From a virus (taxonomy: Duplodnaviria > Heunggongvirae > Uroviricota > Caudoviricetes): a stretch of DNA of 6,000 nucleotides. A program made the position numbers and the translations under genes. Positions 1 through 6,000 of this stretch are shown one piece after another; position 1 is the first letter of the stretch, and each line of letters opens with the position of its first letter. The notes beneath the pieces are model-generated. The model did no database searches and was not told the DNA's origin. It saw only the letters and a list, made by a program, of their open reading frames with translations. The stretch lies in the IMG/VR virus record IMGVR_UViG_2778261058_000017, positions 1 through 6,000 of that record; one strand, 5' to 3'.

Positions 1-235
1 AACACCCTCAGACATTATCAATTTTAGATATAGTATGTCCTTGGCGTAGATTTCTCAAGAGTGTAAACAAGGGGGGAGACTTATGCTGGAAACTTGGGAA
101 AAAGCGACTGTTATTTTGTTCAGTAAACACCATGTAAACACACTGCCAACTGGCAACCATTCAATACTCACACCATCGAACGGACTTCAGCTGACCGCGA
201 CCTGTTTCTTCATTCTCGGATAGCGGCATTCATCT

Positions 236-823
236 TTATGCTGGTTTTGCTGGCCAAGTGATGTCAGGTGCTTTCGATGTATCGACCTCCTGAAGTGCTT
301 TAATGTACCAAATCCACGCAATCAGACTCGTCTTATCTTCGTCGCTAATGATTCCCAATTGCAGTTCAGTTGTCCAGAAACTGATCTTTTCCTTAGCTTT
401 TACCAATAGAATAGCTTTTTGCTTATCAGCCACTTCAACATCAGCTGCATACTTAGCATTTGGGTCTGATACCCACTTTTTCCCATCCCATTTCTGGAAC
501 GGATCAGAAGGAGCAATATTGGTATAGCCATTATTAATAGGACCAATATAGTCGATAGTATGAGGCATACCGTCAGTAGTTGAATAAACTGTCTTACCTC
601 GATGGTCTTCTTTCAAGACCCATCCTCCATTTTCGAATACAGCAACCTTTCCTGTTAGTTCATTACCCGGATCAATATCGGTAGAATTACCCGGCATACT
701 GACGCCAATATTAATATATTCGTCTGACCATCCTATATATTCAAAAGTTACTATATCGTAGTAATAGCAGCGGATTTCACCCGGTTCCGTTGCCAGTCCA
801 TTTTCATCAAAAACAGGTTTCAT
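236..823 (-). CDS. Phage tail fibre assembly protein (lambda Tfa family)
   Basis: 195-aa ORF. Translation carries blocks I recall from lambda Tfa: EDHRGKTVY, YQKWNG-type FQKWDGKKWV, and C-terminal VDTSKAPDITWPAKP (lambda: VDTSTAPDIEWP). Start ATG 821-823 overlaps the stop of the upstream tail-fibre ORF (TAATG), the usual tail fibre to tfa coupling. Confidence 0.88.
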   Translation of the reverse strand: MKPVFDENGLATEPGEIRCYYYDIVTFEYIGWSDEYINIGVSMPGNSTDIDPGNELTGKVAVFENGGWVLKEDHRGKTVYSTTDGMPHTIDYIGPINNGYTNIAPSDPFQKWDGKKWVSDPNAKYAADVEVADKQKAILLVKAKEKISFWTTELQLGIISDEDKTSLIAWIWYIKALQEVDTSKAPDITWPAKPA

Positions 824-1635
824 TATTTAGCCCTTACTAAAAAGTTAAATGTGATATTGCGGGGACGTGTTTCGTTGCCTCCAGGATTTTGGAATGCAGG
901 TAAAGCTCCCCCTATCGGCTGACTGATTCCGTTGGTATATAAAGGAGCTGCATTCGATATTGTACCAAACACTACATTGCTACCATTTCCGCTTGTCCCT
1001 AAAAATTTATGCTCATGCATTTTGAAGTCATCTGCTTGTGCAGAAAGTAAGGTTCGCCCTCTATCCACCCCGCGCCCATCATCCCAGATACGAATAAAAT
1101 CACCCCGTGCGTCAGGTAATGCTAGCGCCGGAAACACTTTCGCCAGCACAGGGTAATCAGTGGCAGAGAATTTCGCGCCGTTGAACTTCAAAAACACCAT
1201 ACTGGACCAACTGTCGATTACAGTATTTGGCATTGCGGCGGACGGCCAGAAGAACGGAACACCAATAGCTGGAGCACCTTCTCCCAAACCAAGATTTTCG
1301 AGAGCCGTTTTCACCGTGCCATCCGATTTGATATCACCAAACGGATTCTTGCGGCTTAACAGCAGCGCGCGAAGTGCGGTACCAAAGGCAGCACCTTTTA
1401 GCTCCGCAAGACGTTCTGACCAGTCATGCGCCAGCGCGTTGTCTTCCGCCGTGTAATACGCAGCACATTTGGCGTTATCACCGTCAGTGAACAGATCCAG
1501 AACAAACGGGCCAAACAGGGTGTTAATTCCCCAGAAAATGTTATCCGGCGTGCGCCACTGATCGCCCACTTCCTTCAGTTCATGGGCTGGTTTGTTCCGC
1601 AGTTCGACCAGCGCCTGGCAATATTTATTACTCAT
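823..1635 (-). CDS. Chimeric ORF: N-terminal fragment of phage Dam-like N6-adenine methyltransferase (about aa 1-85) fused in frame to a phage tail-fibre C-terminal domain
   Basis: Likely start is ATG 1633-1635 (MSNKYCQ...), overlapping the stop of the upstream gene as TAATG, with a GGGGG Shine-Dalgarno-like run upstream; the GTG at 1668 in the ORF track is probably an over-extension. N-terminus has the W-x-TP ... NAK ... Y-T-x-ED ... W pattern of phage Dam-family methyltransferases but breaks off at GAAFG, exactly where the catalytic NPPY motif would follow. The remainder ends in [19 protein letters not shown], resembling the conserved C-terminus of P2/Mu/lambdoid tail fibres, and is coupled to the downstream tfa. 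Family assignments are from recalled motifs. Confidence 0.72.
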
Positions 1636-2123
1636 TAAGCCCCCACGTAATTCCCTGACAGATACCACTCATCACCCGGTACAGCGCGCTTGCTGCTTTT
1701 CCGTAAACACCGCTCACGACGCGCAAGAAAATTGTTTCGCTCTGGCTGGGAGTGGCTTTCACGGAATGCCGCCATCCACACCGTTGCAGCACGACGGTAT
1801 AAGCCCCTGGACTCCAGTTCTTCCGCCTGGCGGGTCAGGCACAAAATCACCCGCGGGTCGTTAGTGCCGACATAGAAATTGCGCACAGGTCTGGTTTCAC
1901 GAACTGGTTGTGGTTCCGGCTCCTGCGCTCTCTCAGTCAGGCGCGGGAAATGTCTGCGTGTATCTCCTTCACAACGGTGAGCCACACGCCCACTCTGACG
2001 TAACTTGCTTGCTGACTGCAGAACGCGCTGCCGTGAGTAACCTGCAAAAGCATCCGCAATGTCTCCGGAAGTACAGCCCGGATGGGCTTCAATGAATTTC
2101 TGAACGTCATTCAAAAGACTCAT
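1635..2123 (-). CDS. PerC/ANR-like domain protein (putative transcriptional regulator), prophage-encoded
   Basis: Open frame of 162 aa from ATG 2121-2123 (or 164 aa from the GTG at 2127-2129, which overlaps the O-like stop as GTGA). The C-terminal segment [21 protein letters not shown]...ARRERCL matches the recalled PerC/Pch/ANR signature (E-x-R-G-L-W/Y-R-R-A-A ... R-x-x-C). The N-terminal 60 aa could be a small helical DNA-binding domain. Stop overlaps the next start (TAATG). Confidence 0.65.
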
Positions 2124-2125
2124 GC

Positions 2126-3067
2126 TCACCCCCTGAATCCTGCCGGGATCTGGCTGTAGTCCACGTTGTCGTAACTGGCTTTGAAGTACGGGTCCTCGCG
2201 TTTTTCGGTGTACGTGCTGACGGACGGCGATAAGCGCAGGGAAAGCTCATCCCATTTTTCCCGCAGCTTCGACGGGCTGAGCACGTTACGGCACCAGAAC
2301 GGATCGCGACTGACGCGGCTGTACATCTCGCAGATTTGTTTATGAGTACGACCATCCTGCACACACATCAGGCGAATTTCGTTTGCCCAGGCTGTCCAGT
2401 TCGGTTCTTTGGGACGAACCACCTCGCCGTCACATTCGGCGGCATGCTCGTACAGGGCGATGATTTTTTTCCAGAGCCACTGTGCGCAGGTCAAATCATC
2501 CTGCGTCCCCCACTGGCGCTTTTTAGGGCTGAATACAACCGCATCAGGATGGCGAGTTAAAAAATCCTGTTCAGCCTTCTGCGTGTCCGGTTGCGAAGCG
2601 TCCGGACGAGAAGTTTTTTTATCTGACGGATCATGTTTTGATTTTACTGACGGATCCCCGCCAGATTCTGACGGGTGAAAACCCGCTTTTTTGCCAGATT
2701 TCGACGCATCAAATTTTGACGGGTCAGATTTTGATGCGTCAGATTTTGACGGGTCAGAATCTGACAGTTGAGAAAAAGCCGCAGCCTGAAGCTTCGCAAC
2801 GTTAAGCTGATAAACATTCGACGCATTGCGGTTACCCTGGCGACGCGCCTTACGCGTTAACCAGCCTTCTGCTTCCAGCCGTGCGATAGCCGTTCTGACG
2901 GTACTCATCCCCGCGCCAATCTGGCGGGCAATGGTTTCAATTGATGGCCAGCACACACCTTCGTCATTACTGAAATCAGCCAGGCGTGCCATAATTGCCA
3001 CGCTGGATAATTTCATGCCTGACGCTGCGCAACCATCCCATACATAGCCGGTTAATTTAGTGCTCAT
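2126..3067 (-). CDS. Phage replication initiator (lambda O-like), N-terminal winged-HTH DNA-binding domain, carrying internal iterons
   Basis: 313-aa ORF with ATG at 3065-3067 preceded by GAGG. The N-terminal about 90 aa look like the HTH domain typical of phage/plasmid replication initiators (SSVAIMARLADFSNDEGVCWPSIETIARQIGAGMSTVRTAIARLEAEGWL). The central low-complexity segment SDSDPSKSDASKSDPSKFDASKS is encoded by tandem 15-bp DNA repeats, as in lambda where ori lies inside O. Confidence 0.82.
   Translation of the reverse strand: MSTKLTGYVWDGCAASGMKLSSVAIMARLADFSNDEGVCWPSIETIARQIGAGMSTVRTAIARLEAEGWLTRKARRQGNRNASNVYQLNVAKLQAAAFSQLSDSDPSKSDASKSDPSKFDASKSGKKAGFHPSESGGDPSVKSKHDPSDKKTSRPDASQPDTQKAEQDFLTRHPDAVVFSPKKRQWGTQDDLTCAQWLWKKIIALYEHAAECDGEVVRPKEPNWTAWANEIRLMCVQDGRTHKQICEMYSRVSRDPFWCRNVLSPSKLREKWDELSLRLSPSVSTYTEKREDPYFKASYDNVDYSQIPAGFRG
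2621..2770. repeat. Putative replication origin iterons: about 8 copies of a 15-bp repeat (consensus near AGATTTTGACGGGTC) inside the O-like gene
   Basis: Five contiguous 15-bp units at 2695-2709, 2710-2724, 2725-2739, 2740-2754 and 2755-2769, plus three dispersed copies at 2621-2632, 2641-2656 and 2662-2677, all sharing the core TGACGG (TGATGC/CGACGC variants). DNA-level identity exceeds what the encoded Ser/Asp/Lys linker would need. Confidence 0.6.
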
Positions 3068-3076
3068 GACCGACCT

Positions 3077-3415
3077 CTATTTCCCTGAATTTACGACGAA
3101 ACTGTTCGAGCGGACTGAAGCATTCATGCTCATAGCCTTCGCGGAGGTAGATAACCCGTTGTGTTTCCGGCTCCCAACGAATGACTCTGACGGGTACTCC
3201 GTAGTGATCTTTGAACCAGCGGTTAACTTGTCGCAAAGGACTGTCTCCTTTTGCCGGTTAAAATCACCCACAGCCCACTCTGCAAAGCTGTGGGTTACAA
3301 TTACCCTGCCACCTGGTACATTCACTGCATAGCAATACTCCACCTTCGCTTTTCCACCCGGTACAGGAAGCGCAATCAGTTGCGAGCGACGGTAGTGTGT
3401 TGTTAAACTATTCAT
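3077..3415 (-). CDS. Hypothetical early-region protein, probably disrupted by a frameshift (intact form about 119 aa ending at 3062)
   Basis: 112-aa ORF with ATG 3413-3415 overlapping the upstream stop (ATGA). A second minus-strand frame is open from 3257 to 3062 and encodes a protein-like sequence ([60 protein letters not shown]) whose stop overlaps the O-like start. The two frames can be joined by a 1-nt indel at the T4/A4 homopolymer at 3249-3252. No family recognised. Confidence 0.5.
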
Positions 3416-3963
3416 GCGTTAGTTTCTCCACAGTCACGACACGCCACGGCGCCCGGAGCTGCACACTCGCGGGCGTCATTACTTTCTGAAATGCAAAAAA
3501 TTTTGTAGACCAGTGCTGCATGCTCCTGCAGCTTCGAAATTGAGAGGTACAGCTCGTCGTTAATTGCTGTCTTCTCATGCGGTTCCACTACACCGTCTTC
3601 AATTGCTGAACGAATCTGTTTTGAATAACTGCCGATCTGTTCAATGACCTCCAGCAGGCGTTGGTTGATATCGGCGTTGTCCACATCCTCGACATCAGGA
3701 AGAGACACAAAGACGCCATTTGCAGACTGCGCCACAGCGTCAGCAATGAAGTGAGTTCCACCAGCACGTTGCAAAATCATTGCCCATCCCAGCGGGAAAA
3801 TCTGATCGCCATCGGCACGAAGGCGGTTAAATAATGCGTTCTCTGTTACATCCAGCCAGTCAGCAGCTTCAGCGTACCCCCCCGGCAACGCTGCGATAGT
3901 TTTTCTGACAGCTTTCACGTACCACTCAGGCTGTTTTTCTACTTTCCAGTGATGCTTACCCAC
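3412..3963 (-). CDS. Phage regulatory protein in the CII position (resembles the 186-CII/CP76-type family), putative
   Basis: 183-aa ORF with GTG start at 3961-3963 preceded by AGGAGG at 6-nt spacing; overlaps the Cro-like gene by 8 nt. The N-terminal region has an HTH-like segment ([22 protein letters not shown]). Position immediately downstream of cro and size both fit long CII-type regulators. Family call is from recalled features and is tentative. Confidence 0.6.
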
Positions 3964-4216
3964 GGTTCACCTCCTGTTCCTGTGGTTTAAACCCATTCTG
4001 GTTTTGGCTAGATTGAAAACGTGCCGGATAAAGAATCTGCATTTCGCTGACTTCACCCTTAAAAAAATTGGCTAAACGTTCTGCAAGCTCGATAGATGGA
4101 ATCTGCTCCAGCCTCTCAATACGACTCAACGTCGCTGGATTGACTTGAACACCCGCAGCAACATGCTGCAAAGTGAAACCATGCGCCTTACGCACATTTC
4201 GTAATGGTGATTGCAT
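3956..4216 (-). CDS. Cro-like HTH (XRE-family) transcriptional regulator
   Basis: 86-aa ORF with ATG 4214-4216 preceded by GGAGG (complement of 4222-4226). HTH segment FTLQHVAAGVQVNPATLSRIERLEQIPSIELAERLANFF. Divergent from the CI-like repressor across a 97-bp operator region. Confidence 0.8.
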   Translation of the reverse strand: MQSPLRNVRKAHGFTLQHVAAGVQVNPATLSRIERLEQIPSIELAERLANFFKGEVSEMQILYPARFQSSQNQNGFKPQEQEVNRG

Positions 4217-4313
4217 ATGTCCTCCAAATATTGCGCGTTATGCATGTTATTTCACGCAATTATTTTGCGCAAGTTGATTTGCTTATCACGCAATAAAGAA
4301 ATGTAATAAACGC
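4217..4313. promoter_or_regulatory. Divergent promoter/operator region (OR-like) between the Cro-like and CI-like genes
   Basis: Two similarly built 29-bp sites: TTGCGCG-N15-CACGCAA (4231-4259) and TTGCGCA-N15-CACGCAA (4265-4293), with half-sites 22 bp apart. Candidate leftward promoter: -35 TTGCGC (complement of 4267-4272) and -10 TAACAT (complement of 4244-4249). Candidate promoter for the repressor: -35 TTGCTT 4279-4284 and -10 TGTAAT 4302-4307, ending 6 nt before the ATG, and no Shine-Dalgarno sequence, suggesting a leaderless mRNA as for lambda cI from PRM. Confidence 0.65.
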
Positions 4314-5006
4314 ATGAACATAGGAAACCGAGTCAGACAACTTCGCCAAGCGAAGAACATGAAAATCGCCGATCTCGCTGAAGCAATAGGAGTAGATGCG
4401 GCGAACATCTCGCGCTTAGAAACGGGTAAGCAAAAACAATTTACCGAACAAACACTGAGTAATATTGCCAAGAGCTTAGGTGTTGATATTGCTGATCTCT
4501 TTACCTCTGCCCACAAAAGTAATACTGTATATAAAAACAGTAATAATGAGGATGTTGCGCAGGTGAAGGATGTGTTCCGTATTGAAATGCTGGATATCAG
4601 TGCCAGTGCGGGAAATGGCCTTATCCAGGGCGGTGATGTCATTGATGTGATTCATGCCATCGAATACAGAACTGATAATGCTGTATCAATGTTCGGCGGA
4701 CGACCAGCCAATCACATCAAAGTTATCAACGTTCGTGGGGACAGTATGTGTCCAACCATTGAGCCAGGAGATCTCATCTTCGTTGATGTCAGCATCAATC
4801 AGTTTGATGGTGATGGTATATATGTCTTTGGTTTTGATGACAAAATATACGTTAAAAGACTTCAAATGATTCCTGACAAACTGCTGGTGATTTCTGATAA
4901 CCAGATTTACCGTGAATGGGGAATTACTAGCGAAAACGAACACCGATTCATGGTCTTTGGAAAGGTCTTAATCAGTCAGTCGCAAACCCTTAAGAGACAT
5001 AATTAA
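4314..5006 (+). CDS. CI-like prophage repressor: N-terminal HTH (XRE) plus C-terminal LexA-type S24 peptidase autocleavage domain
   Basis: 230-aa ORF. N-terminal HTH (IADLAEAIGVDAANISRLETG). Putative Ala99-Gly100 cleavage site (SASAGNG). Ser144 in GDSM and Lys181 in YVKRL, with the Ser-Lys spacing of 37 that I recall for LexA. Confidence 0.92.
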   Translation: MNIGNRVRQLRQAKNMKIADLAEAIGVDAANISRLETGKQKQFTEQTLSNIAKSLGVDIADLFTSAHKSNTVYKNSNNEDVAQVKDVFRIEMLDISASAGNGLIQGGDVIDVIHAIEYRTDNAVSMFGGRPANHIKVINVRGDSMCPTIEPGDLIFVDVSINQFDGDGIYVFGFDDKIYVKRLQMIPDKLLVISDNQIYREWGITSENEHRFMVFGKVLISQSQTLKRHN

Positions 5007-5026
5007 CCTCAATATCCCATCCATCG

Positions 5027-5047
5027 GCCACCGAAAGGTGGCTTTTT
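5027..5047 (+). terminator. Rho-independent terminator downstream of the CI-like gene
   Basis: Perfect 6-bp stem GCCACC (5027-5032), loop GAAA, GGTGGC (5037-5042), followed by TTTTT (5043-5047), 20 nt after the repressor stop. Confidence 0.7.
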
Positions 5048-5063
5048 ATTACCTATAAAGTTA

Positions 5064-5097
5064 CATATCTCGCAAATATTACTTGCATATCTCGCAA
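5064..5097. promoter_or_regulatory. Putative secondary (OL-like) operator: direct repeat of CATATCTCGCAA, 22 bp apart
   Basis: Identical 12-mers at 5064-5075 and 5086-5097. The 10-bp core TATCTCGCAA matches the OR half-site TATCACGCAA (4284-4293) at 9 of 10 positions. A possible promoter overlaps (-35 TTGCAT 5083-5088, -10 TATCTT 5106-5111). Confidence 0.4.
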
Positions 5098-5260
5098 TTT
5101 AATTTTATCTTTTGTTCCAGACCAACTACAGGATTACAACAAAATCTGGTTGCAACACGGTGCATGTGTCGTAAGCAGTCAGTAAATGTCAAAAACGAAC
5201 AGGCAGGACGCCCACGAAGTAGCCGCCTGGGGCATATGAAGTCTAGGGTGATTCGTTAGC

Positions 5261-5286
5261 AACAAAAAAGCGCCCTACAGGACGCT
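5261..5286 (-). terminator. Hairpin plus T-run: candidate intrinsic terminator on the minus strand (alternatively a boxB-like hairpin of a plus-strand antitermination site)
   Basis: Stem AGCGCCC (5269-5275), loop TACA, GGACGCT (5280-5286), with one mismatch. On the minus strand it is followed by TTTTTTGTT (complement of 5261-5269). On the plus strand it lies 2 nt upstream of the boxA-like element. Confidence 0.4.
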
Positions 5287-5288
5287 TA

Positions 5289-5301
5289 GCTCTTTAACAA
5301 T
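5289..5301 (+). promoter_or_regulatory. boxA-like element GCTCTTTAACAAT (NusB/NusE-binding type antitermination signal)
   Basis: 13-nt run matching the recalled E. coli rrn leader boxA (TGCTCTTTAACAATTTATCA) and the boxA consensus GCTCTT(T)A. It sits in the plus-strand leader about 45 nt upstream of the small ORF at 5346, i.e. in the position of nutL relative to cI in lambda. Confidence 0.5.
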
Positions 5302-5345
5302 CTGGTCCCCATCAACAAGTAACTGATAACTTGAGGAGGTGTGAA

Positions 5346-5552
5346 ATGCACAAAACAGAACCCAAAATCGTCGCGCCCGGATACACAAATGAGGAAATTT
5401 ACGAGTGGATGGCAAAGAAGCTGGCAGCTATAAACCAGCTTCGTGAAGTGCTGTCTTATCGACAGGAAACAATAGACTCCTTAAAAAAACTGGATCAGGA
5501 AATCACGGTTTTATCACAGGATGTTACTTTAGATATTGTGCAGACAAATTAG
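5346..5552 (+). CDS. Small hypothetical protein (68 aa), predicted helical; first gene downstream of the cI-distal operator/boxA leader
   Basis: ATG at 5346 preceded by a strong GAGGAGG (5333-5339) at 6-nt spacing; the TTG at 5331 in the ORF track is unlikely to be the start. Not Arg-rich, so not an N-like antiterminator. Its 3' end overlaps the convergent minus-strand gene by 29 nt. Confidence 0.55.
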   Translation: MHKTEPKIVAPGYTNEEIYEWMAKKLAAINQLREVLSYRQETIDSLKKLDQEITVLSQDVTLDIVQTN

Positions 5553-6000
5553 GATCCCATTCATTTTCGTCAAAATCATCAAAGTGATGAATTTGTGATC
5601 TCCAGTCTCGATAATCTAAAAATTTCTGGGCGGTTACGCTTATTTTATCAAGTGTGAGTTCATCCTGAATTGAAAGAAGAAGTTCATCAAATTTCATCTC
5701 ATTAATCTGTTTTGGCATCCAGTGATGCTTCATCAGAATAAGGTGAACCAGAGCCTTTTTCCCATTCAACTGATTATAGGGAGTGCCGAATTTCTTCCGG
5801 TGCTCATGTAAGACAAGGTCCAGAAGAGTAAGTAATGTTGCCCTTGATTCCACTTTGCTTATTTCGACTGATGACACTACCCCACTGATTTCAATGCCCC
5901 GATACTTTCCAACATTTTCACAGTGGGATTTGTACAGCGTGTATGTTAGCGCCAGTGATATAAGACGGTAATTCACCATTTGGATTGTCCGCTCCACCCA
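5524..6000 (-). CDS. Hypothetical protein, AT-rich accessory (moron-like) gene; 5' end probably beyond the window
   Basis: Open frame from the window edge to the TAA stop at 5524-5526, at least 158 codons. The GTG at 5997 and the ATG at 5977-5979 are possible but unconvincing starts. Lower GC than the replication genes, by eye. Oriented against the putative early-left transcript. No family recognised. Confidence 0.6.
   Translation of the reverse strand, partial: WVERTIQMVNYRLISLALTYTLYKSHCENVGKYRGIEISGVVSSVEISKVESRATLLTLLDLVLHEHRKKFGTPYNQLNGKKALVHLILMKHHWMPKQINEMKFDELLLSIQDELTLDKISVTAQKFLDYRDWRSQIHHFDDFDENEWDPNLSAQYLK

Follow-up and report, generated by a model that had tools for sequence, protein, structure and literature searches.

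A probable intragenic replication origin in the O-like initiator gene of an SfIV/SfII-type lambdoid prophage

Introduction

The closest described systems are the origins of phage lambda and the Stx phages. The lambda origin is intragenic, with dyad-symmetric iterons, whose number varies among relatives, and an A+T-rich tract (PMC7466680). There are four iterons in lambda and six in Stx phages, where they add 13 residues to the linker of the initiator (PMC7466680), and the Stx-phage origins are of the same type as ori-lambda. Here we analyzed 6,000 nucleotides (positions 1 to 6,000) of the IMG/VR virus record IMGVR_UViG_2778261058_000017, hereafter the window, which represent the early region of a lambdoid prophage and contain an O-like initiator gene of 313 codons at 2126-3067 on the minus strand. 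Our analyses suggest that the segment at ~2585-2776, in the linker part of this gene, probably acts in cis as the origin of replication of a lambdoid prophage of the SfIV/SfII type.

SfIV has been isolated as a viable phage, and the paper describing its genome does not mention an origin (PMC3851460). Literature searches found no origin described for SfII, SfIV, CPS-53 or e14-type elements, and returned only work on lambda and Stx phages or on unrelated systems. The original prediction for this locus had placed a probable prophage origin at an array of 15-bp repeats inside the O-like gene.

Results

Palindromic iterons within the initiator gene

The repeat array proved to be real. Tandem Repeats Finder delineated it at 2695-2758, either as 4.3 copies of a 15-bp period (81% matches) or as 2.1 copies of a 30-bp period (88%), and a repeat search returned five in-register units at 15-bp spacing together with many inverted-repeat pairs. 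The hexamer TGACGG, which had been proposed as the core shared by all copies, is indeed enriched: there are 11 copies in the window versus 2.55 expected, a number reached in none of 200 shuffles, and exact plus-strand copies within the array region begin at 2624, 2648, 2669, 2717 and 2747. However, while all three dispersed copies carry it exactly, only two of the five phased units do so, the other three having CGACGC at 2702, TGATGC at 2732 and TGACAG at 2762. The unit conserved among relatives is not TGACGG but a 13-bp palindrome, GTCARA-W-TYTGAC (GTCARAWTYTGAC), and CGG/TGC falls in the variable spacer that separates one palindrome from the next.

Searching the 6-kb window with the pattern GYCAGAWTYTGA, allowing at most one mismatch, identified six distinct sites, starting at 2660, 2693, 2709, 2723, 2738 and 2753, versus 0.25 expected. 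This number was reached in 0 of 200 shuffles and there were no sites elsewhere in the window. Five of the six palindromes (2660-2765 overall) are spaced by exactly 15 bp. The iterons, which carry no strand assignment, are as follows:

2753..2765, iteron 1: GTCAGAATCTGAC, a perfect 13-bp palindrome with 0 mismatches on both strands
2738..2750, iteron 2: GTCAGATTTTGAC, pattern match and inverted repeat I11
2723..2735, iteron 3: GTCAGATTTTGAT, pattern match, also found by the repeat search
2708..2720, iteron 4: ATCAAATTTTGAC, minus-strand match at 2709-2720
2693..2705, iteron 5: GCCAGATTTCGAC, degenerate, 1 mismatch
2660..2672, iteron 6: GCCAGATTCTGAC, isolated, 33 bp from iteron 5

The iterons occupy codons 101-135 of the 313 codons of the initiator gene, inside a predicted disordered linker, and the minus-strand units encode the pentapeptides SDPSK, SDASK, SDPSK and FDASK. 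In the SfIV genome the iteron array is the top-scoring tandem repeat, and the palindromes cluster in the O-like gene only, the sole exception being a match with a single mismatch at 24163.

A terminator-like hairpin and T-run, CGGGTGAAAACCCG CTTTTTT, is present at 2672-2685 on the plus strand, antisense to the initiator gene and between iterons 5 and 6. It is probably incidental, since its stem is not conserved in relatives.

The repeats are conserved as DNA

Related loci were gathered with the N-terminal domain of the initiator alone (residues 1-98), so the repeats could not have biased the sampling. The resulting 68 distinct loci are from Enterobacterales, ranging from Shigella to Proteus, Providencia, Yersinia and Pantoea, and their N-terminal domains are 69-100% identical. 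Synonymous variation was measured in a codon alignment of these loci as the codon difference among identical residues, with the following results:

Codons 2-97, N-terminal domain: synonymous difference 0.574, amino-acid identity 0.80
Codons 98-161, linker: synonymous difference 0.151 (0.05-0.06 at codons 138-151), amino-acid identity 0.60
Codons 162-185, after the linker: synonymous difference 0.496, amino-acid identity 0.50
2585..2776 (codons ~98-161), no strand assigned: full DNA-constrained zone, proposed origin

In sliding windows the synonymous difference was 0.05-0.28 within 2585-2776, as against 0.44-0.68 over the N-terminal domain and 0.43-0.63 downstream of the zone. Several linker codons are invariant or nearly so, including Ser TCA (68/68, 64/64 and 67/68 loci), Val GTA (67/67), Asp GAT (68/68) and Phe TTT (66/66), whereas in the columns of the N-terminal domain every synonymous codon is in use. 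Serine in the linker is encoded by TCT, TCA and TCG only, while elsewhere in the gene AGC and AGT are used most often for this residue. The amino-acid replacements seen in the repeats result from single-nucleotide changes and bring in chemically very different residues (Phe, Tyr or Pro for Ser; Glu or Asn for Lys). When the same peptide was randomly recoded with synonymous codons, a mean of 0.53 palindromic sites was obtained with a maximum of 4, and none of 5000 trials reached the 6 observed. A sequence logo built from 367 iteron copies is dyad-symmetric, with the three variable nucleotides falling between the palindromes. Low synonymous variation over a less conserved linker peptide places the constraint on the nucleic acid at ~2585-2776, and the repeats are conserved as DNA and selected independently of the peptide they encode. 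The homologues therefore present the opposite of a linker that is kept while its DNA repeats are lost: the repeats are retained at synonymous sites and the peptide drifts.

The geometry of the array is also retained. In each of the 68 loci, 3-9 iterons follow the N-terminal domain directly, at intervals of exactly 15 bp, and 255 of the spacings counted over these loci are 15 bp. Most loci have in addition an isolated iteron copy 33 or 48 nt past the tandem array. Among more distant HTH_36 relatives with 34-41% identity, four (L076, L078, L079 and L080) have arrays of their own in the same place with periods of 18-27 bp, one (L077) has no array and another (L082) has only two copies.

An A+T-rich core follows the iterons

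The remaining elements of the constrained zone lie beyond the iterons in the direction of the gene and again carry no strand assignment:

2608..2657: A+T-rich conserved core, candidate unwinding element, containing the 30-, 40- and 50-bp stretches of lowest duplex stability in the gene
2585..2607: G+C-rich dyad GTCCGG(N11)CCGGAC (direct repeat D8), at the junction between modules

The original prediction had noted no strongly A+T-rich flank. Such a flank does exist, as nearest-neighbour duplex stability profiles placed the least stable 40 bp of the gene at 2608-2648 (71% A+T; z = 3.4 within the gene), although it is somewhat weaker than that of lambda. Lambda served as the positive control, and the profile located the A+T-rich region known from this phage immediately past iteron 4 (78% A+T; z = 3.0 within the gene). 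In mEp460_4F5, a phage with a different cassette at the same genomic position, the profile picked the block after that phage's own iterons (71% A+T; z = 3.2). In the window, lambda and mEp460_4F5 alike, the iterons thus come first and the least stable DNA lies 3' of them with respect to the gene.

The core contains two half-site-like CCGTCAG copies (TGACGG at 2624 and 2648). A segment of about 60 nt, TTTTsACCCGyCAGAATCTGGsGGGGATCCGTCAGTAAAtTCAA...GAtCCAyCAG...AAAA, is nearly invariant across genera (59 loci), and conservation in the zone is highest over the non-repeated stretch 2608-2682. Within the most conserved part of the core are two GATC sites at 2629 and 2653, 24 bp apart. In the first, Pro CCN comes after an Asp GAT codon that is present in 68/68 loci; in the second, CCN comes after GAT (59/68 loci). 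In phages of this group the initiator gene is closely followed by a gene for a Dam-type methylase, and the GATC sites may link origin firing to methylation or SeqA. The dyad at 2585-2607 ends the constrained zone, with synonymous sites still constrained there, and the stretch 2589-2622 is common to phiNP-type and mEp460_4F5-type genes.

In lambda (L085, 3160-3185) we observed a palindrome, GTCAGAGAATTCTGGC, past the A+T-rich tract, whose half-sites resemble the iteron of the window (GTCAGAATCTGGC on the gene strand). This likeness may be a coincidence.

The iterons and the N-terminal domain are exchanged as a cassette

Comparison of the window with mEp460_4F5 by blastn identified homology at 1380-2622 (96.6%) and 3062-3536 (90.2%) and no match in between. 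The features concerned are the following:

2623..3061, minus strand: exchangeable cassette of N-terminal domain, iterons and A+T-rich core
2762..3067, minus strand: N-terminal winged-helix DNA-binding domain, codons 1-102, presumed iteron binder (AlphaFold2 model)

The replacement cassette of mEp460_4F5 has an unrelated N-terminal domain, five 23-bp palindromic repeats and an A+T-rich block of 3 x 12 bp. Citrobacter phage phiNP has the same N-terminal domain and repeats as the window, at 83% identity, but a different C-terminal domain (PF09524 type). These comparisons indicate that the iterons and the initiator N-terminal domain are exchanged together as one specificity module. Because nothing else changes together with the repeats, the N-terminal domain is most likely what binds the iterons.

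The initiator protein

That the gene encodes an O-like initiator, as predicted, was confirmed by a full-length match to phrog_391, "replication initiation O-like" (E = 3.2e-135; residues 1-313 versus profile positions 1-298 of 298), and by an HTH_36 domain at residues 23-70 (Pfam; E = 4e-11). The Pfam scan also returned matches to GntR, HTH_29 and PaaX, and weak ones to DnaD_N, RP-C and MarR; it returned no match to Phage_rep_O, the family of lambda O. The gene is 98-99% identical to counterparts in SfIV, SfII, PhiR29 and others, which are annotated as "DNA replication protein O", "primosomal protein" or "replication protein".

In the AlphaFold2 model the N-terminal domain has helices at residues 3-16, 20-31, 43-50, 54-66 and 90-102 and strands at 70-74 and 84-88. 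Its top Foldseek matches were MarR/ArsR-type winged-helix proteins, although these were weak (E ~ 4e-3). Members of the MarR/ArsR-type families are typically dimers on palindromic sites. The repeats encode the linker between the N- and C-terminal domains, as had been proposed: linker residues 102-161 have predicted local distance difference test (pLDDT) values of 27-38 and are thus predicted to be disordered, with a confident helical C-terminal domain beyond. Little constraint at the protein level is therefore expected in the linker. The C-terminal domain had no Pfam or NCBIfam family and no significant structural match.

We also searched for recognition residues that track changes in the iterons. 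The motif STVRTAI, in the predicted recognition helix, and the motif GNRNxSN, in the wing, both occur in 16 of the 17 diverse relatives displayed. In the most diverged of these, L069 (69% identical), both motifs differ and the iteron ends are altered too, but as this is the only lineage that changes both, the co-variation is anecdotal.

Many database copies of the initiator are "partial" proteins that start or end near the repeat region, which suggests that short-read assemblies often break at the array. In two E. coli chromosomes (L053 and L073, at 1501-1737) an open reading frame (ORF) of 455 residues starts with residues 1-79 of the initiator at 99% identity, and the remainder, unrelated to the initiator, is presumed to be terminase-like. 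We take this ORF to resemble the e14 ymfN fusion, in which case e14 would have a decapitated initiator copy without the repeats.

Other signals at the locus

DnaA boxes (TTWTNCACA, at most one mismatch) gave 18 matches versus 14 expected, none of which clustered at the repeats, and DnaA involvement is thus unsupported. There was no sigma-70-like promoter at 2400-3300. Matches to plasmid records were discounted, as they look like prophages in large replicons or are circular records of 37-64 kb that offer no independent proof of replicon function; the one circular record that was inspected (37.7 kb) has no replicon type and has phage genes.

Prophage context

The genes of the window are as follows:

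4314-5006, plus strand: cI-like S24 repressor
3956-4216, minus strand: cro-like gene
3412-3963, minus strand: YmfL / CII-like gene
3057-3415, minus strand: small ORFs
2126-3067, minus strand: O-like initiator, 313 residues
1635-2129, minus strand: PerC-family gene
823-1668, minus strand: chimeric ORF, Dam methylase N-terminus and tail-fibre C-terminus
236-823, minus strand: tail-fibre assembly gene

The closest genome match to the initiator N-terminal domain is in Shigella flexneri, and complete E. coli genomes cover at most 76% of the window. Similarity of the window to intact relatives begins at 1380, within the chimeric ORF, which consists of a Dam methylase part (PF05869, residues 29-86) and a C-terminal tail-fibre collar. 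The genes that normally lie between the methylase and tail-fibre genes have been removed by deletion. As the chimeric ORF is the scar of this deletion, the prophage is defective, yet its immunity and replication region is intact, with the initiator gene and origin region lying under an intact repressor and early operon. Derepression could, we infer, cause local over-replication of the chromosome.

Among the small ORFs, one of 59 residues encoding DUF4222 (3057-3236, minus strand) overlaps, in a different frame, the 3' half of a ymfM-like ORF of 112 residues (3077-3415, minus strand). The DUF4222 ORF is directly upstream of the initiator gene in 68 loci, including mEp460_4F5, with identity down to 31%, and the ymfM-like ORF is present in only 45 loci. 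The DUF4222 ORF is thus probably the real gene there, rather than the ymfM-like ORF.

In the complete SfIV genome (39.8 kb), the O-like gp41 is the sole annotated replication gene and is followed by PerC-like and LexA-like regulators; it has no annotated helicase, helicase loader or primase.

Discussion

A probable replication origin and how it might work

We consider it likely that the constrained zone serves as a replication origin, and each element of that interpretation that was open to sequence analysis is supported. In the mechanism that we envisage, the six 13-bp palindromes would be occupied by the winged-helix domain at the N-terminus of the initiator, probably in dimeric form. The nucleoprotein complex, together with rightward early transcription through the gene, would then open the adjacent A+T core at 2608-2657, by analogy with lambda. 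The C-terminal domain would subsequently recruit the host helicase or replication proteins. This last step is the least certain, as there is no P-, DnaB- or DnaC-like phage gene and the C-terminal domain has no Pfam family.

Several observations weigh against this interpretation. Searches of the literature returned no binding or origin-activity experiments for this phage group or initiator family. The iterons are 13 bp at a 15-bp period, whereas those of lambda are 18-19 bp and spaced 20-24 bp apart (20, 24 and 23 bp), a difference in period already noted in the original prediction. A centre-to-centre spacing of 15 bp, with half-sites 7-8 bp apart, is also unusual for a winged-helix dimer. Although 2608-2648 stands out within the gene, its stability z is only 1.8 relative to the whole window, which makes it a modest A+T-rich segment. 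There is no P-, DnaC- or DnaB-like gene directly downstream of the initiator gene, the next gene being of the PerC family. Lastly, in a prophage that is defective, as this one is, the origin may have ceased to support a productive cycle.

The 15-bp period puts neighbouring sites ~1.4 helical turns apart, so the sites do not form a simple same-face array of the kind usually drawn for lambda. One can picture a complex unlike that of lambda, in which the dimers spiral, the C-terminal domain acts directly on host proteins without a phage loader and firing is coupled to Dam and SeqA, but we regard this combination as rather doubtful. In such a complex the near-abutting palindromes and the 15-bp period would have the dimers wind around the DNA instead of lining one face, and the pair of invariant GATC sites may tie firing to the Dam gene that these phages have downstream, with sequestration by SeqA.

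Alternative explanations

A different possibility is that the zone is a real DNA site whose main role is other than origin firing, such as autoregulation or copy control (handcuffing), binding of another phage or host protein, or a conserved recombination joint that favours module exchange. The zone ends exactly at the module junction (2589-2622), where lambdoid phages are known to recombine, and its two conserved GATC sites are possible targets of SeqA or Dam. However, recent recombination would lower all divergence, whereas here certain positions never change and variation is free in the amino acids and the 3-nt spacers. A different protein as the binder is disfavoured, since the repeats swap with the DNA-binding domain of the initiator while the neighbouring genes stay constant. 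The order of iterons and then A+T-rich DNA is that of lambda, and regulatory and origin roles are in any case compatible at the same sites. We thus judge it unlikely that origin firing is not the main role of the zone.

Two further explanations were considered. In one, the DNA has no function and the repeats are no more than a low-complexity Ser/Asp/Lys/Pro linker that changes by replication slippage, in keeping with SDPSK-like pentapeptides in a disordered linker and with a unit number that varies from 3 to 9 among relatives, as slippage would produce. Synonymous sites are, however, about four times more conserved in the linker than in the folded domain, and its peptide is less conserved. The recoding result and the restricted serine codons point the same way, and the part conserved most of all, 2608-2682, is not repeated. 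A repeat maintained only for its peptide is contradicted by the synonymous conservation and the recoding, and we find this account scarcely credible. Almost as improbable is a constraint that arises from mRNA structure or from a gene overlapping in another frame. In single-stranded form the DNA has a favourable predicted fold (-34.9 kcal/mol; z = -4.7), ORFs of 55 and 60 residues overlap the repeats in other frames, and an Rfam scan of the whole window returned a weak match to mir-5880. That match, the only one, scored 30.7 bits versus a gathering score of 97, belongs to a eukaryotic microRNA family and was rejected as being caused by the palindromes, of which the strong folding is likewise a trivial product. 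The copy number varies and the motif is strand-symmetric. None of the alternative frames stays open throughout the loci; the best, an antisense frame, is open in 24 of 59, and the variable positions fall in 3-nt blocks, not at every third base.

Significance

If the zone is the origin, these data provide a base-level map of a likely origin for a widespread group of Enterobacterales temperate phages and cryptic prophages. Among its members are SfII and SfIV, which convert the serotype of Shigella, as well as relatives of CPS-53 and e14 of E. coli. Where a disordered linker is poorly conserved as protein, low synonymous variation across it cleanly marks a cis element hidden within a gene, and this diagnostic could be extended to other initiator families. 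In its 15-bp packing and its lack of a loader gene, the locus contrasts with the lambda model. In addition, the Lamassu defence system has been reported to sense palindromic origin repeats at the lambda origin (bioRxiv 10.1101/2025.04.02.646746), and the palindromic repeats described here are the kind of structure that it reportedly senses.

Comparison with known systems

The locus resembles lambda in the position of its iterons in the middle of the initiator gene (codons 117-145 of 299 in lambda, 101-135 of 313 here), in the iterons being inverted repeats and in the least stable segment, only moderately A+T-rich here, lying immediately downstream of them in the gene direction. The gene order of cI, cro, cII-like gene and initiator also places the site in the rightward early transcript, as in lambda. 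As in lambda and the Stx phages, iteron number varies between relatives and changes the length of the linker. The differences from lambda, besides the size and period of the iterons, are that the initiator is of the HTH_36 type and not Phage_rep_O, that the flank is 71% and not 78% A+T, that a PerC-family gene and not a P-like gene follows the initiator, and that the C-terminal domain has no Pfam family or significant structural match.

The sister cassette of mEp460_4F5 shares with the window its flanking genes and initiator C-terminal domain, which are 90-97% identical, and the layout of N-terminal domain, palindromic iterons, A+T-rich segment and shared junction. It differs in its N-terminal domain, which is unrelated, in its five iterons (CATCAGGTCAyTTTGACCyGATG), which are 23 bp at a 23-bp period or about two helical turns, and in its A+T-rich part, which is the 3 x 12-bp repeat.

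Repeats within or next to an initiator gene are also found outside the lambdoid phages, as in oriL of Bacillus phage SPP1, which is inside gene 38 for the replisome organiser G38P, and in iteron-type plasmid origins. Initiators of the SPP1 and plasmid types are modular, with a DNA-binding N-terminus and a helicase-recruiting C-terminus, the layout proposed for the initiator described here. The protein families and hosts differ, and SPP1 has its own loader and helicase (G39P and G40P). Together, these comparisons lead us to propose that the SfIV/SfII-type locus most likely works in a lambda-like manner but outside the lambda O / P system, with another initiator family, another iteron size and spacing, and no loader gene.

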